Source: a virus
DNA: 64,000 nucleotides
Virus record (IMG/VR): IMGVR_UViG_3300018890_000001
Location: 628-64,627 of that record
Direction: 5' to 3' (one strand)
The translations under genes and the position numbers were made by a program. Below, one piece after another: positions 8 through 59,399 of this stretch. Position 1 is the first letter of the stretch, and every line of letters begins with the position of its first letter. Below the pieces are notes generated by a model. That model was given only the letters and a program-made list of their open reading frames with translations. It was not told the origin of the DNA and ran no database searches.

Positions 8-1405
8 GTGATCATCGGATTTGCCGACGGTGAAAAGCGCACGAAGCTGAAGGGAAAAATTTGGTCGATCGGGCGCATCCCGCCAGACACTACCGTAATT
101 ATGATTGTCGATCCTTCCGCCGGTATTAAAGGAAGTACGTCCGCAACCAATTCAGCGGCAGAAAAACCTTCAGAACTAGAGCGTCCCGAATCAGACAAAA
201 TAGACCCGCACAAACTAGCGGTCGCGCTCAAAAAAGGGAAGATGGACCCGAAGAAAGTAGCTGAAGAACTAGCAGATCCGAAAAAAGCTGTCGGCGAGAA
301 GAAAACATCAAAATTTACTGCAAGTGGTTCAGGCGCAGCCACTAAGCCTGAAGAGAAAGAAGAGGAAAAACCGGATCTGTCTCCAGTCAAACCACCAGAA
401 AAAACCGCAACAGAACCTAAAAAAGAAGAGCAGTTTCAAGCAACTTTCAAAGGTCAGTCTCCTAGTTTCGACAAACTGATGGACAAGGTTAAGGAGACGA
501 GCGCATTAGCTAACGGTAATAAATTAAACTATTCCACCGCAGAACGTCTGTCATACACGGGTGCCAGTGGTGGCGCTCAGCTCAAATTCCAAAATAGTAC
601 CGACTTTAACGGTTCCAAAGGTGGGGAGGTACTGCTGGGTGCAGGAAAAGGTCACGCTGCAGCACTCGAAGCCATTCTCCAGGGAGACGTGATTGTCGTA
701 CCCCAAGGCGAGACGATGAAACAAGTCGGTCCCGGTCAAGGTGAACCGTCGGGAGTGATCCTAGATTACGCCAACAACCGAGCAGTATTTATCGGTAGAC
801 CGGAAATCACCAAGAGATCCCCGCTGCAACTTTCGTCAGGGCAAGGTGCAATCACCGTCGTCTCTCCGAATATCGAGCAAAAAACGGTGAACGGCGCGAC
901 TGTTGCAACTCCAGGCAAACCGGCACAACATCCTACGGGAATCGTAAAAATACCAAGCAAGGGTGAAATAAAGTTGGCCGATCCACTATCTCCTGGCTGT
1001 CCTTACACTTGGGGCGATATGACCCGAGAAGGGAAATTCACGGATGACCTAAAAGCAAGTCACATTGAAGGCGCGGTAAAAATATCGCAGTACCTCACGC
1101 AATGGACGGCGGAAACTGGCGGTAAAAAATGGGAAATTACTTCTTGGTTCAGACCGAGTTGGTACAACGTGCAGGTCGCTAGCAGTGGTGCGGACGGACC
1201 GCACACGCACGGCTCTGCGGTTGATTGTTGGTTTGAGGGATTCATGAAATTTTACGACAAGCTTGACGCTTCTTGGGATCACGGCGTCGCCATCAGTCCA
1301 GCCGGTAGTCCGACAGGTGAATTTATGCACATCGATTTAATTGCACCACCAAAACGACGCTGGGCGTACAGTCACCTCAGTTACACCTCTACGGGACTAT
1401 TCTAA
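8..1405 (+). CDS. Tail/baseplate-associated protein with C-terminal peptidase M15 domain (5'-partial)
   Basis: Frame is open from the window start. C-terminus ITSWFRPSWYN...HTHGSAVD...FMHID matches Zn-dependent M15 peptidases. The N-terminal part is tentatively hub-like. Confidence 0.75.
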   Translation: MIIGFADGEKRTKLKGKIWSIGRIPPDTTVIMIVDPSAGIKGSTSATNSAAEKPSELERPESDKIDPHKLAVALKKGKMDPKKVAEELADPKKAVGEKKTSKFTASGSGAATKPEEKEEEKPDLSPVKPPEKTATEPKKEEQFQATFKGQSPSFDKLMDKVKETSALANGNKLNYSTAERLSYTGASGGAQLKFQNSTDFNGSKGGEVLLGAGKGHAAALEAILQGDVIVVPQGETMKQVGPGQGEPSGVILDYANNRAVFIGRPEITKRSPLQLSSGQGAITVVSPNIEQKTVNGATVATPGKPAQHPTGIVKIPSKGEIKLADPLSPGCPYTWGDMTREGKFTDDLKASHIEGAVKISQYLTQWTAETGGKKWEITSWFRPSWYNVQVASSGADGPHTHGSAVDCWFEGFMKFYDKLDASWDHGVAISPAGSPTGEFMHIDLIAPPKRRWAYSHLSYTSTGLF

Positions 1406-54065: not shown

Positions 54066-54091
54066 AACGAGCTGCGGTTTTGGGTTTTTAG

Positions 54092-55454
54092 TTGATGTGA
54101 GCGTGAAGCCCTACGAGCCACCGAAGATGCGCGTCGGGACAAAAGCGCAGCCAAAAAATAAATTGAGCTGTAGCAAATAAATAATCGTTTTTGTGCGTTA
54201 TGATGATTTTATCAGTATTCCGCACACCTGATAAATGTATAAAGCTTACAAGTACAGAATTTACCCCACAAGTGATCAAGAGGTTTTGCTCGCAAAATCT
54301 TTTGGGTGCGCACGATGGTTCTGGAACTACGCTTTAAACCTGTGTCAAGAAACCTACAAGCATACTGGTAAGGGATTGTCTAGGGGCTACATACAAGGCT
54401 TACTTCCTACACTCAAAAAAGAGTACGAATGGCTAAAAGAGCCATATGCTCAATGTTTGCAGGCGGTTGCGCTCAATCTATCTACAGCCTACAAAAACTT
54501 TTTTGAGAAGCGGGCGATGCCCCCAAAGTTTAAAAACAAGTACAGTAGACAGTCGATCAGCTATCCGCAAAACATAAAGTTCGATGGGGACTATATCAAC
54601 TTACCTAAGATTGGTCTAGTTTTCTGTCGAAGACACCGTGATTTCGTAGGTGACATTAAAACTGTTACCGTTTCTCGAAACCCAGACGGTAAACACTTTG
54701 TTTCTGTTTTGATTGACGACGGGAAAGAACACCCTGAGCTAGTCGCAGTAGATAAGACTATTGGCATTGACGTGGGGTTGACTCATTTTGCAGTCACCAG
54801 TGATGGTTCTAAATTTGACAATCCCAAGCATTTCGTCAAGCGTCAACGGAACTTAAAGCGCAAACAACAGAAGCTTTCTCGCAAAAAGAAAGGCAGTCAA
54901 AACCGGAAAAAGGCAAAACGGGCTGTAGCCAAAGTCCACTCCAAAATTGCCAGATGTCGCGAAGATTTTCTACATAAGCTATCCCGCAAGATAGTCAACG
55001 AAAACCAAGTTATTGCAGTAGAAAATCTCAATATCAAGGGCATGGTCAAAAATCATAATCTAGCCAAAGCTATTAGTGACGTTGGTTGGGGGATGTTTTG
55101 CACGATGCTTAAGTACAAGTCGAAGAACGAAGGAAGAAGACAATACGTCGAAATCGATAGATGGTTCCCTAGCTCTAAGACTTGCCATGTATGCCTAAAT
55201 CAAATCAAGCAGCTTACGCTTGACGTTAGAGCATGGACTTGCAAACATTGTGAAACACACCATGACCGTGATATCAACGCAGCAATCAATATTAGAAATG
55301 AAGCCTTGCGGATTTTGGCATTAGGAATTAGTGCTTCTGCCTGTGGAGGGGATGTAAGTCGATCCGGTAAAACTTCGGTTTTGTTGGACGCTATCCCCAT
55401 TGAATCAGGAAGCCAGACGATGACCGATTAATTGGCCGTCGTCTGGTAATTCAC
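54092..55454 (+). mobile_element. IS200/IS605-family element carrying tnpB only
   Basis: Right end GAAG-hairpin(CCAGACGA/TCGTCTGG)-TAATTCAC at 55454. Left-end-like GAAGCC...GCGTCGGGA near 54105; left boundary approximate. Confidence 0.8.
54235..55431 (+). CDS. tnpB: RNA-guided endonuclease TnpB
   Basis: YKYRIYPT N-terminus, RuvC IGIDVG / VENL / HDRDINAA with all catalytic acids present, Zn ribbon CHVC...CKHC. Confidence 0.95.
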   Translation: MYKAYKYRIYPTSDQEVLLAKSFGCARWFWNYALNLCQETYKHTGKGLSRGYIQGLLPTLKKEYEWLKEPYAQCLQAVALNLSTAYKNFFEKRAMPPKFKNKYSRQSISYPQNIKFDGDYINLPKIGLVFCRRHRDFVGDIKTVTVSRNPDGKHFVSVLIDDGKEHPELVAVDKTIGIDVGLTHFAVTSDGSKFDNPKHFVKRQRNLKRKQQKLSRKKKGSQNRKKAKRAVAKVHSKIARCREDFLHKLSRKIVNENQVIAVENLNIKGMVKNHNLAKAISDVGWGMFCTMLKYKSKNEGRRQYVEIDRWFPSSKTCHVCLNQIKQLTLDVRAWTCKHCETHHDRDINAAINIRNEALRILALGISASACGGDVSRSGKTSVLLDAIPIESGSQTMTD

Positions 55455-56032
55455 ACAATACCAGCTCTGCCGGTCATACGGTTGAAGCGGTTTTGGTTTT
55501 GTAGATCACCCAAAGCAACGCCTCTAGAAGCTGCTCTGGTTACAACACGCGCATCATCGTAAGAAATAGTGCATTCCAACATCGTTGCACCGTCGCCGTC
55601 GGTCGAATCGATATCGGCGTCCGGTATTGTATATTTCATGCACCATACGCCTTCCAGGTCTGCGAACGCTGATTGTAAATCATCTCCAGATTCGGCAAAC
55701 TGACCCGGTTTTCCTGTAAATGTTCGCAAAAACTCAATCTCGGCGTTGCGCTTGTAGTTCGGATTTACGCCACCAAGCCCCTTGTCTACGGCTTGCTCGA
55801 ACCAATCGAGGTAAGCTTCGCGGGAAGTGTCATCCGAAAAGTGCAACGTGATTGTAAACTCGCCCGGTTCAACGCGACCACCAGTGACTTTTGTGCCATC
55901 GGGCAGTTCGATCGCCCCAACGGCCACATCAATAGTACCGCGCTGGGTAATTACGATTTCGGGCAGACCAGCAACGCGGAAACGTTGCTTGGCTTTTTTG
56001 AAAATATTTTGCTGTAATGTCTGCTTTTGCAT
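55451..56032 (-). CDS. Contractile tail tube protein
   Basis: GRVEPGEFTITL...YLDW...YKRNAEIEF...GVWC...ECTISYD (gp19/Afp1-like); follows the sheath gene. Confidence 0.85.
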   Translation of the reverse strand: MQKQTLQQNIFKKAKQRFRVAGLPEIVITQRGTIDVAVGAIELPDGTKVTGGRVEPGEFTITLHFSDDTSREAYLDWFEQAVDKGLGGVNPNYKRNAEIEFLRTFTGKPGQFAESGDDLQSAFADLEGVWCMKYTIPDADIDSTDGDGATMLECTISYDDARVVTRAASRGVALGDLQNQNRFNRMTGRAGIV

Positions 56033-56056
56033 GATGGAGTTTCCCAGATAAAAGGA

Positions 56057-56298
56057 TTGACACTCCCCAGACTGAAGTTGAGGGGATTCTTAATTCAGCG
56101 ACTAACCTTAAAATTTCCTGTCCTTACGGCAATACTCAAACCTTTCAACCGTGGGATACACCAATTGACGAGTCTAAGTTCAGAAGCATCCCAGCGGGTT
56201 TGTCTCCAAAAGCGTACTAGGATATTTCCCTAGAGTTTGGGTATGCCCTACCCTACTTAGCGATTTCGACCGTCGAAAATTTTTCAACCTCGACGGTC
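56057..56298 (-). mobile_element. Non-autonomous IS200/IS605 remnant: omegaRNA-type 3' end without tnpB
   Basis: Minus strand ends AAGAATCCCC-TCAACTTCAGTCT-GGGGAGTGTCAA. Its 5' part encodes LSRVGHTQT, like TnpB C-termini. Hairpin GACCGTCGA/TCGACGGTC at 56268-56298. Confidence 0.75.
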
Positions 56299-56306
56299 AG
56301 TGAAAA

Positions 56307-59288
56307 TCACATACTGTCGAGAATCGAAGGTCCGGTATTAATTACCAGGCGCTCAACTATTCCTGTGGGTGTCCACACAAAATTCGCCGTTAGTACGCCG
56401 TTAATGACTTCAACAAGCTGACCGCCACTTTGTCCAACGGTTGAATTTGAGTCGGCGTCTTGTCCGGTGTTAATTCGGATTGCTTCATCAAAAGTCAGGT
56501 ACTGCGAAAATACACCTTTGCTGTATTCGCGACGCGCAAAACTTCGCAAAATCATGCGGAACTGAGCTGCGAGGTCTGGTTGATTTGGTCGGAAAACCAA
56601 CTCTTGCAAGTTATCAACTTCGATAAAGATCCGGTTGTAGTTTGACTGGCAGCGTCGAATGTGGAGAAAAATGTAAGCCGAACTAAGGCTTGGCGCTCTT
56701 GCGCCCCAGACGATGATATTGCCCTCGCTATACTTGAGCATTTGAACGCCCGAAGTGTTCGCAATTACCTCATCGGATCGCCCAATTTCAAACGGCAACC
56801 CGATCGCCCTTGGTAATCTGGCTGCGCGTCCGGCAAACATGACGTGATACCCAGCGTTGTTTACCGCAAACAGGGATTCGCCGCCCATGATGTCACCAAC
56901 GGCAGTAACCATCCGCTTCCCAGCACCGAATGGAGACGCGATGTAGATATAACTGGGCGCTGCTACGCTAGCAAAATCATTCCGACCTAATTCTTGTTTG
57001 ATGTAGGATTCGATCGCCGCTGCTGTTGTTAGGTAGACAGGCAATTCATAACGGAATTCGTAAGACCGCGCTTCTGCGTAAGTTGCACCGGCTTTGTTTA
57101 CGGTGATAGAGCTGATGCCCGGAAACGCCATACGCACCAATCCGAGGTTGCGACCGTAAACCGCGTTTTCTACGTGATTCGTGTCAGGATCTACGTACTT
57201 TGTCCAATAGTAGGGAATTGTGTTTGCTGTGTTGCCGTCGTACCCACCTTCGAGGGCGATCGGATGATTCACGAAAAATGAATTCCCGGTTTGCGTTGCA
57301 ACAGTTAGATCGTTGCCAACACCTACGTAAAAATAACCTGCTTTTTTAGCCTTCGTTTGCGCGGGAGCGTTGCTGGTAAATGCACGTTCGAGCAACACTT
57401 GAGTATCGCTAACAATCCGCACAATTTTCCGAGCTTCTTTTGAGTGGGGGCTATAAATATAGTCTCCAATCACCAGCGAAGTCAAAAATGTCGTACCCGC
57501 GCCGTTAACGGTTGTTCCGGTTGACGAAATTGAACCTTCTAAATCTACAGGAGCGTAAGCTTCTTTGATTCGGATCAGATTTCTGTATTGATCGTAAGGA
57601 GAGATGTACAGTGAGCTGCCAATCGTCTTGGTGTAGTCGAGATCGATTACCGTGTAAAGTCGGGTTTGAGTCAGCGCCAGAATTTTACTACCGGCGATCG
57701 GTCGCACGTCGGAGTCTTCTGCTGTAGTGTACGTACTTGTCCACAGCGATCGCGCTCGAATCCATGCCAAGATATTTTCGCCAGAGCTGCGATAGGCAAC
57801 ATTTCCCACAGTATCGGAAACAACTGTGTCCACGAAAAGTGGGTCGTTCGGATCGAGACTGGCATCGGGAATGTGCAACACCTGCGAATTGTTGAAAAAT
57901 ACTCGCAGTGAGAAATGTGTCTCTGGTCTGCTTTCACCTAGGGCGGTTTCAACGGTTAACCCTTCGCCTATCGGCTGTAAAAGTTTGACAGTTGCCCGTT
58001 TCGATTGCTTGGCGAGACTTACGTCGGTGAAGTCACTGGAAAATGGCTTCTCAATTTTTAACGAAGTTGCGGTGGGGATTGCCATAACTTTGATTGCTTC
58101 TCCAGCGCGCAACGGATCGACAATATAATCACCAACCTGAACTTGAGCGGTAAATGTCGTACCTGTGCCTGTAACTGTTAAACCTTGTTGTTCAATTTGA
58201 GTACCGGCGGAGAGCGCTGCTGTAAATCCAGAAGTTAGTGTCAAGACCGTCGCGCTGGTAATTGCCTCGATTTTGCGTCCTTGGCGCGCCCCACCAATCG
58301 TTGCATAGATGGTGTCGCCCACATTCAGATCCGTAGTGAATGCGGTCCCAACACCAGTAACCGTTTTGTTGTCGCGCATCATAGTTTGATCCGCGACGTT
58401 ACCCCCGGTATAAGAGTCGTTTACCGTCAGCGTAGTGTCGGAGGTAATTGACACGATTACGCGCCCCTCTGTGCCGAGATAGATATTGTCGCCAACGTCT
58501 AAATCTGTCGAGAAAGTGGTTCCCGTACCAGTCAAAATGTTGTCGTTGACCGTTACTGTTCCGGCGATCGGCTGCAATAGCGGAAATGTTACAGTGCCGG
58601 TAATATTCGGATAGCGATCGTAACTGGCGGTGCCACCCAGTACGCTTGGTCCGGAGATGCCTTCTTGCAGTAAGTTCCACTGTGCACCACAGGTGAAAAC
58701 GGTTTCGCCCGCGCGACCAATAGCCTGAGTATTTGCAATAATGGTAAATCTTTTGCCTGGAGCAGACTCGAATTCCACCTCAGCCCCAACATACTCGTTC
58801 GCCAACGTACCTGGCGCAATGATAGTAAAACTTCGAGCGGAAGCTACCAGCACGGGTGTTAATGCAATTTCAGACGCTTGACCTCCCCAACGACCTTCGT
58901 TCGCGGCTTCAATTTCAAGCGCGTCTGCACCAAGCCAGTTTTTTAAAACTTTCTTGGCGCGTTTCGCTTTACCGTCCACATCAATCCTGGTTAGCCACAG
59001 TAAGCCGGCTCCGGCACCGTTTTGCCAAAAACCTTCAACTGCGTCTGGAGTTTGTTGGCTGGCATCCGGATATAAAGCCCAATTGGGAGCTTTCGGATCG
59101 CCAAAAACTTCTAAATACTGCTTGCGAGACGTAACCGGAATCGGCGTTGACATCGGTCCGCGTTTCATGATTCCCCCGAACCAAACGCTACCGTAGCGAG
59201 GATCTGCCAAAATATTCGATGCCGGTCTTTCTTCGACTGAAACCCCTGGAGCGCCTGGAGGTGCACCGTATCTGCGAACGACGACCAT
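56307..59288 (-). CDS. Contractile tail sheath protein with inserted repeat domains
   Basis: N-terminal PGVSVEE...GIMKRGP...ITSRKQY..VFG; C-terminal IIVWGAR...LHIRR...LVFRPN...FVWTP..VERLVI; 4 GTGTxF...VGD inserts. Confidence 0.9.
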   Translation of the reverse strand: MVVVRRYGAPPGAPGVSVEERPASNILADPRYGSVWFGGIMKRGPMSTPIPVTSRKQYLEVFGDPKAPNWALYPDASQQTPDAVEGFWQNGAGAGLLWLTRIDVDGKAKRAKKVLKNWLGADALEIEAANEGRWGGQASEIALTPVLVASARSFTIIAPGTLANEYVGAEVEFESAPGKRFTIIANTQAIGRAGETVFTCGAQWNLLQEGISGPSVLGGTASYDRYPNITGTVTFPLLQPIAGTVTVNDNILTGTGTTFSTDLDVGDNIYLGTEGRVIVSITSDTTLTVNDSYTGGNVADQTMMRDNKTVTGVGTAFTTDLNVGDTIYATIGGARQGRKIEAITSATVLTLTSGFTAALSAGTQIEQQGLTVTGTGTTFTAQVQVGDYIVDPLRAGEAIKVMAIPTATSLKIEKPFSSDFTDVSLAKQSKRATVKLLQPIGEGLTVETALGESRPETHFSLRVFFNNSQVLHIPDASLDPNDPLFVDTVVSDTVGNVAYRSSGENILAWIRARSLWTSTYTTAEDSDVRPIAGSKILALTQTRLYTVIDLDYTKTIGSSLYISPYDQYRNLIRIKEAYAPVDLEGSISSTGTTVNGAGTTFLTSLVIGDYIYSPHSKEARKIVRIVSDTQVLLERAFTSNAPAQTKAKKAGYFYVGVGNDLTVATQTGNSFFVNHPIALEGGYDGNTANTIPYYWTKYVDPDTNHVENAVYGRNLGLVRMAFPGISSITVNKAGATYAEARSYEFRYELPVYLTTAAAIESYIKQELGRNDFASVAAPSYIYIASPFGAGKRMVTAVGDIMGGESLFAVNNAGYHVMFAGRAARLPRAIGLPFEIGRSDEVIANTSGVQMLKYSEGNIIVWGARAPSLSSAYIFLHIRRCQSNYNRIFIEVDNLQELVFRPNQPDLAAQFRMILRSFARREYSKGVFSQYLTFDEAIRINTGQDADSNSTVGQSGGQLVEVINGVLTANFVWTPTGIVERLVINTGPSILDSM

Positions 59289-59399
59289 AATTTTATCCTT
59301 TGAGAATTGAACACAAAAAAATCGATGCTGTGAAAGCACCGATTAAAGTTGGCTGGCAAATATTTAGGTTTGAATTCTAACGGCGAAACCGATATTGAA

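Follow-up and report, generated by a model that had tools for sequence, protein, structure and literature searches.

Background

Does the spacer that separates the tail sheath gene of a phage from its tail tube gene hold a guide RNA that the phage has put to use, or the remains of a transposon of its host? The omegaRNA (reRNA) of IS605-type TnpB proteins, such as that of ISDra2, is encoded by the last ~100 nt of tnpB together with the right end of the element. It consists of a structured scaffold, its guide is taken from the first ~16-20 nt of the flank, and its target needs a transposon-adjacent motif. To our knowledge, the region from the tnpB 3' end to the right end encodes an omegaRNA in every characterised TnpB system. 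IS200/IS605 ends also work as DNA hairpins, and in the IS608 mechanism the transposase TnpA needs the subterminal hairpin. A preliminary description of the locus studied here had read its sequence as a stand-alone omegaRNA-type element, either acting in trans with a host or phage TnpB or domesticated by the phage for tuning sheath:tube expression.

Here we report a comparative analysis of this spacer in the phage, in related phages and in host genomes. The explanation that we favour, to which we assign a probability of about 0.7, is that a copy of a Microcoleus PATE, truncated on its 5' side and immobilised, lies in the spacer as an omegaRNA module without tnpB and is most likely a neutral or slightly costly passenger.

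Results and discussion

The spacer and the flanking tail genes

The window, that is, the whole stretch of DNA analysed, comprises 64,000 nt (positions 628 to 64,627) of the 199,763-bp virus record IMGVR_UViG_3300018890_000001. Microcoleus is confirmed as the probable host by the relatives of a phage-encoded TnpB protein (TnpB2, see below), which are 83-92% identical across many Microcoleus genomes. The sheath-tube spacer occupies positions 56033-56306 (274 nt), with the ORF of the tail sheath gene as upstream neighbour (56307..59339, minus strand, 1010 aa) and that of the tail tube gene as downstream neighbour (55451..56032, minus strand, 193 aa). Both gene assignments of the preliminary description hold: sheath residues 799-978 match solved phage tail sheath proteins (9ezm, 8bky; E 2e-10), and the Atlas clusters nearest to the tube protein are the Phage_TTP_2 and T4 gp19 tube families, with scores of 0.95-0.96. 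Pfam and PHROGs searches left the tube protein unnamed and returned for the sheath a sole match, a repeated 'tail fiber'-type domain at residues 260-382. This inserted stretch has matches among PHROG families annotated as 'tail fiber' or 'minor tail', and also matches a chain of a distal tail protein (23gd_B), which suggests decoration domains on the sheath surface.

A transposon right end within the spacer

Profile searches and alignments place at 56057..56268, on the minus strand, a 5'-truncated fragment of the IS200/IS605 family that corresponds to the complete omegaRNA-type module of a tnpB-less host element, or PATE. The fragment scores 202.6 bits against a profile of the host family (nhmmer, E 1e-60) and shares 86-92% identity with host copies. 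Read on the minus strand, the 3' part of the spacer runs GAATTAAGAATCCCC..GGGGAGTGTCAA, followed by TCCTTTTATCTGGGAAACTC, CATC and the tube ATG. The subterminal hairpin of the right end, CCCC..GGGG, lies at 56065..56085 (minus strand) and has 2 mismatched pairs when compared with the nearest host copies; the terminus TCAA lies at 56057..56060 (minus strand), where homology to every host copy stops, the flanks beyond it being unrelated between the spacer element and the host copies. The adjoining flank, TCCTTTTATCTGGGAAACTC (56037..56056, minus strand), would supply a 20-nt guide; it belongs to the tube 5' UTR and ends 4 nt before the ATG at 56032. The 3' end of the insert is 24 nt upstream of this ATG, and the insert has the sense of the late operon.

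The right end aligns with the sequence that follows the stop codon of tnpB2, ..GAAGAATCCCC..GGGGAGTGTCAA, and remnants of TnpB C-terminal codons can be read in the element in shifting frames (..VGHTQT.., ..SLN*ESP..). Within its own genome the element is single copy, a self-similarity search giving only short matches at the tnpB2 3' end. Most of what had been noticed at the outset was borne out. An IS200/IS605 3' end is present at a significance far above chance (E 1e-60 with nhmmer, 3e-16 with a covariance model); the hairpin and the TCAA end are found on the minus strand, which is also the strand of the flanking late genes; the ORF list contains no tnpB ORF in the spacer; and homology begins just past the last RuvC motif, tnpB-linked 3' ends aligning right after the NAARNIL codons. 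The extent had to be revised. An element is indeed present in the 274-bp spacer, but it is ~210 nt long (56057-56268) and not ~240, and it does not reach 56298, the hairpin at 56269-56297 being native phage sequence that is conserved in five relatives without the element. The original observation is thereby confirmed with corrected boundaries.

A family of tnpB-less elements in the host

A BLAST-type search gave 6-40 matches per genome in five Microcoleus/Lyngbya genomes, the best being 86-89% identical over about 209 nt. Copies were present in 55 of 144 host-family genomes (E<=1e-30); the best were 91-92% identical, and several subfamilies could be distinguished. No tnpB ORF adjoined the host copies, nearly every one of which is the 3' part of an ORF-less element of 510-580 bp with its left end 300-400 nt upstream. 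This host element has an invariant TTATC at its 5' border, a left end with two small hairpins in common with the left end upstream of tnpB2, a promoter-like TGnTAtAcT box resembling an extended -10, a middle part of about 200 nt without detected similarity to tnpB, and an omegaRNA module of about 205 nt that corresponds by homology to the final ~105 nt of tnpB and the right end, and terminates in TCAA. The spacer copy represents its 3' two-fifths. Left end and last ~150 positions are the only parts common to the PATE and the tnpB2-type IS. The host family therefore has what defines PATEs, namely the lack of a protein gene, multiple copies and ends in common with a tnpB-bearing IS. A decayed full tnpB IS was also considered as the identity of the spacer element and rejected, the host copies all being tnpB-less PATEs.

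The PATE was examined at the host loci L087-L121 and L157-L168, an example being L089:1501-2010 (minus strand). Both its promoter-like box and its middle region are conserved; the middle region reads ..GACACACTTTTAGGCATAAAC.GGGGGAC..GCGAAAAC.. and has no Rfam match. At one locus (L107:320-1688, host G004) a tnpB starts about 30 nt downstream of a PATE right end on the same strand, which looks like one IS200/IS605 element inserted beside another.

Comparative evidence for an omegaRNA-type module

A covariance model, R1, was built solely from 44 tnpB-linked 3' ends of the tnpB2 family, from the position after the NAARNIL codons to TCAA. Its sole match in the window covers 56057-56265 (minus strand) over the full model length, with 68.5 bits (E 3e-16). 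The same model gives 33-87 bits for host PATE copies, a range that includes the spacer copy, and 181 bits for the end of tnpB2 itself. When 27 family members were aligned to R1, 88.8% of cells were paired, against 27-49% with the partners slid, and 29 of 43 model pairs had double changes, values that none of 500 shuffles reached; this alignment was fitted to the model and so leans towards it. An independent MAFFT alignment of 31 PATE modules analysed with RNAalifold again gave double changes, at 29 of 49 pairs. The covariation spans six helices over about 200 nt. The single-sequence fold of the spacer element (MFE -59.5 kcal/mol) is no better than that of shuffles (z = -0.05), so the support for the fold is comparative and not thermodynamic.

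The spacer element is homologous to a tnpB 3' end through to the right end, it has a conserved secondary structure with compensatory changes, and it stops at the right-end cleavage site with the flank in the position of a guide. These are the properties expected of an omegaRNA, and the description of the spacer as an omegaRNA-type module without tnpB is supported by the R1 match together with the covariation, which is strong across the family. Homology and position thus support a putative omegaRNA-type module. No score reached an Rfam gathering threshold anywhere in the window; with E up to 10, Rfam returned nothing above chance level for 55300-56500 and no match for four host elements.

Stems of this kind might conceivably serve only single-stranded DNA recognition during TnpA transposition, the copies having no functional omegaRNA. 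The action of IS200/IS605 ends as DNA hairpins and the missing Rfam match would agree with such a reading, but covariation over six helices and about 200 nt extends far beyond a subterminal hairpin, the corresponding region encodes an omegaRNA in the characterised TnpB systems, and the host copies carry a promoter-like box upstream. We regard this as the least probable of the explanations considered here.

State of the phage copy

The spacer copy keeps 31 of the 43 model pairs; of six mismatched pairs, two fall in the right-end hairpin, at places occupied by G-C pairs in its closest relatives. Among 30 host copies, 93 columns reach a conservation of 90% or more; the phage copy conforms at every one of these, whereas host copies deviate at 0-19. 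By this measure it is as intact as a typical host copy, a state that would fit recent arrival and selection alike. The fragment starts 5-12 nt before the onset of homology between PATE and tnpB IS, a placement to be expected of roughly 1 in 20 random breakpoints.

What distinguishes the phage copy from a PATE is its 5' side. No left end, TTATC or promoter was found upstream, where a profile of the 5' part aligns over no more than its final 40 positions, and no promoter or terminator was predicted inside the insert. Left and right ends with subterminal hairpins and a 5' target motif define a PATE; since the phage copy is without left end or TTATC upstream, it is a fragment of a PATE and not a PATE. 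The copy is immobile, being incapable of transposition.

Related phages and the insertion junctions

Five related phage contigs cover the locus, four with a full tube gene (95-98% amino acid identity) and the fifth with its first 56 residues (100%). DNA identity of the flanking genes to these relatives is 77-85% where blastn aligned, so the insertion need not be very recent. The spacers of the relatives are 63-71 nt long, have a hairpin after the sheath stop and lack the element in 5/5 cases. The absence of the element from all five is the reason why we consider a passenger, rather than a regulatory device of the phage, most likely.

The native hairpin has the arms ACCGTCGA / TCGACGGT (56269..56297, minus strand, just after the sheath stop) and is found in all five relatives. 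Its 6-bp core is kept in all six phages with one compensation of C-G to U-A, and the contig L152 is nearly identical. It had been considered as a left end of the transposon, an idea rejected on finding it in relatives without the element. This hairpin, the loop of which is too long for the terminator scanner, may act between sheath and tube, either as a weak attenuator or as an RNA-stability element. An interrupted T-rich tract follows it in the relatives and is displaced by the insert in this phage.

Compared with L152, the insert (56057-56268) replaces TTCTAT between ..TCGACGGT and TCCTTTTAT... At the right junction, host homology stops exactly at TCAA, as it should at a genuine transposon end; at this point L154 and L155/L006 have empty sites that read TTTCAA|TCC, with a native TCAA. 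At the left junction, local alignments to host copies extend to 56283, through a microhomology (56269..56283, minus strand) of phage AAAATTTTCGACGGT with host element AAACTTTTTCACGCT, even though L152 has this stretch natively. Upstream of the module, the closest host subfamily has ACTTTTTCACGCT, to which the native AATTTTCGACGGT is similar.

Contigs from four biocrust DNA runs of two studies (2017 and 2021), one of which may be the source sample, bridge both junctions with zero differences. The junctions being unchanged in the runs of 2017 and 2021, the insertion allele persists, and no empty-site joint was seen in the covered parts of these contigs. None of the public runs listed as holding the locus is an RNA run. 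A blastn search of INPHARED phages with 1.3 kb and a search of IMG/VR for the exact right-end pattern gave no match, and PLSDB plasmids gave one match of 45 nt, to the right-end hairpin only.

Two histories fit these junctions. In the first, a Y1 TnpA of the host would have inserted a PATE copy directly behind the sheath-proximal hairpin while the phage DNA was replicating, and a later deletion between two imperfect 13-nt repeats would have cost the copy its target motif, left end, promoter and middle part. In the second, one illegitimate recombination with microhomology at both ends would have brought in the fragment. In either case, the relic would be read through within the sheath-tube late transcript. 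Its scaffold seems intact enough for binding by a cognate TnpB, whether phage TnpB2 or the product of host copies, and it could be loaded by TnpB.

Other transposon sequences in this phage and its relatives

The phage carries a candidate partner. The tnpB2-type IS lies at 169.8-171.2 kb of the genome, with the tnpB2 gene at 169954-171165, and has ~90% identical copies in Microcoleus. The D/E/D motifs of TnpB2 are readable (LDVG, YEDL, DRDENAARNI), and the protein is apparently intact and of the family cognate to the spacer module. The IS and the spacer copy have the same right end, GAATCCCC..GGGGAGTGTCAA, the same conserved single-stranded motifs (ACGCTTnGGGAGA, AAGAATC) and the same helices by the covariance model. 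The left end of the IS matches that of the host PATEs, which is the end lost from the spacer copy. The spacer copy differs from the IS in having no protein gene, a lower score (68.5 vs 181 bits), other stem sequences and a longer central helix. A Y1 transposase gene was not found in the phage; host genomes have 6-8.

Two further tnpB-less matches to R1 lie in the phage outside the window, at G000:C1:189455-189599 (plus strand, 41.9 bits) and 40-135 (plus strand, 23.2 bits). The closest complete relative (G145, IMGVR_UViG_3300032431_000001, 188,399 bp) has ten R1 matches, three of them strong, among which are 159364-159522, 163691-163849, 166039-166197 and 140004-140144, all at sites different from those in this phage. 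Full-length PATEs are present in other viral contigs. Given the extra fragments in the phage, the ten matches in G145 and the PATEs in viral contigs, transposon debris is evidently common in these phages. We also noted a solo left-end-like stretch in the phage genome (197669-197714, minus strand) and, in G145, a partial tnpB about 3 kb downstream of the tube gene (L006:6193-6578).

A second, unrelated IS adjoins the other end of the tube gene. Complete and with a probable 5' motif TTGAT, it occupies positions 54066-55454 (plus strand), between the tube gene and the next gene. Its gene, tnpB1 (54235..55431, plus strand), encodes 398 aa with Pfam OrfB_IS605, HTH and TNB domains. The element with a TCAC end that had been noticed beside the tube gene is this complete IS with its tnpB; its right end (..TTCAC, about 55454) lies directly against the stop codon of the tube gene. 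Since ..TTCAC provides both the TGA stop and the third base of the sense codon before it, the length of the tube protein is unchanged. Of the relatives, four distinct ones continue beyond the tube gene; none of them has the IS, and a terminator stands in its place. The IS is not matched by R1, and its would-be guide is antisense to the tube 3' end.

Guide targets and the proposed functions

No second target for the guide of the spacer module was found in the phage, and none beyond chance in five host genomes. Because the guide matches only its own flank, there would be no target for cleavage; because the right end, in place of TTATC, stands before that one match, self-cleavage is not expected. 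The empty sites of the relatives read TCTAT, TTCAA or TTTAT at the position of TTATC and lose the match to the guide after 6-9 nt. Homing into these relatives is not supported, since the motif position differs and the guide diverges.

The idea of a domesticated or purpose-built phage device finds no support in these comparisons. The element is a 5'-truncated multicopy transposon of the host and is absent from five relatives, its guide is plain flank with no other match, and the empty sites of the relatives are without TTATC. The proposed functions, a trans-acting guide or the tuning of the sheath:tube ratio, are not supported. A literature search for stand-alone omegaRNAs in phages found nothing relevant.

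Weighing the explanations

Several observations sit uneasily with a mere passenger. The fragment equals the omegaRNA module almost exactly and none of its 93 conserved columns is changed; a cognate, apparently catalytically intact TnpB is encoded by the same phage; the allele recurs without change in biocrust runs from two studies (2017 and 2021), and the relatives are only 77-85% identical in DNA; and the T-rich tract behind the conserved hairpin has been replaced, with a possible effect on read-through into the tube gene. One could therefore imagine a working trans-acting guide RNA, late transcripts supplying an omegaRNA to TnpB2 or a host TnpB that would cut insertion-free co-infecting relatives (homing or exclusion) or other DNA. 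The complete scaffold with all conserved family positions kept, the cognate intact tnpB2 in the same genome and the near coincidence of fragment boundary and module start speak for it, as does the view that host PATE omegaRNAs act in trans (bioRxiv 10.1101/2023.03.14.532601). Yet the guide matches nothing besides its own flank, behind a right end in place of TTATC; the empty sites of the relatives (TCTAT/TTCAA/TTTAT) diverge from it after 6-9 nt; the element is absent in 5/5 of them; two pairs are broken in the stem adjoining the guide; and both the motif and the RNA are inferred. We consider a guide of this kind quite unlikely.

The position of the insert invites a different reading, in which a structured element acting in cis would alter termination, processing or translation and so set the sheath:tube ratio, possibly via TnpB cleavage of the polycistronic mRNA. 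The insert stands directly 3' of the conserved hairpin in place of the T-rich tract of the relatives, has the operon sense and ends 24 nt before the tube ATG. Against this, five relatives manage with a spacer of 63-71 nt, no promoter or terminator is predicted inside the insert, its single-sequence fold is no stabler than shuffles (z = -0.05), and in both sequence and structure the insert is a member of the host transposon family, with nothing specific to the phage; the reading is very unlikely. A combined form, in which a bare omegaRNA gene has been kept in the late operon, so that TnpB2 would be loaded late against the sheath-tube junction of insertion-free competitors (homing or exclusion) or TnpB processing would uncouple sheath and tube expression, seems still harder to credit. 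An adaptive role of the spacer element of any kind is, taken overall, improbable, though well short of negligible, and the truncated host PATE carried as a passenger is the reading that we retain.

Conclusion

Transposons without tnpB but with an omegaRNA-type module are abundant in Microcoleus and related cyanobacteria, and these host PATEs appear to enter the phages of these hosts and to decay there into solo guide-RNA modules. For annotation, such spacers are best treated as transposon debris and not as phage regulators, and the copies offer, for one TnpB family, a naturally occurring series of scaffolds that covary. Should the phage TnpB prove to load the relic, this would be a rare case of a transposon guide RNA used without its transposon; nothing found here points in that direction.

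The nearest known counterparts of the spacer module are of two sorts. Like the omegaRNA of ISDra2, it extends from the tnpB end to the right end, has a structured scaffold, would take its guide from the flank and would require a transposon-adjacent motif at its target; unlike it, the module has no tnpB upstream. Its scaffold has about 205 nt; compared with the form linked to tnpB2, about 50 nt are inserted in the centre. The host element as a whole is of a kind already described, being by its sequence a PATE-type non-autonomous IS200/IS605 derivative. PATEs of Geobacillus stearothermophilus are protein-less IS200/IS605 derivatives that 'often encode omegaRNAs' used in trans by TnpB (bioRxiv 10.1101/2023.03.14.532601). 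The host family resembles them in its hairpinned ends, the lack of an ORF, its many copies, a fixed 5' motif (TTATC) and a 3' module of omegaRNA type, the homologue of which belongs to a tnpB IS of the same genomes. It differs in its conserved middle region of about 200 nt and in the organisms, Microcoleus and relatives, and the phage copy differs further in having neither left end, target motif, promoter nor middle part.
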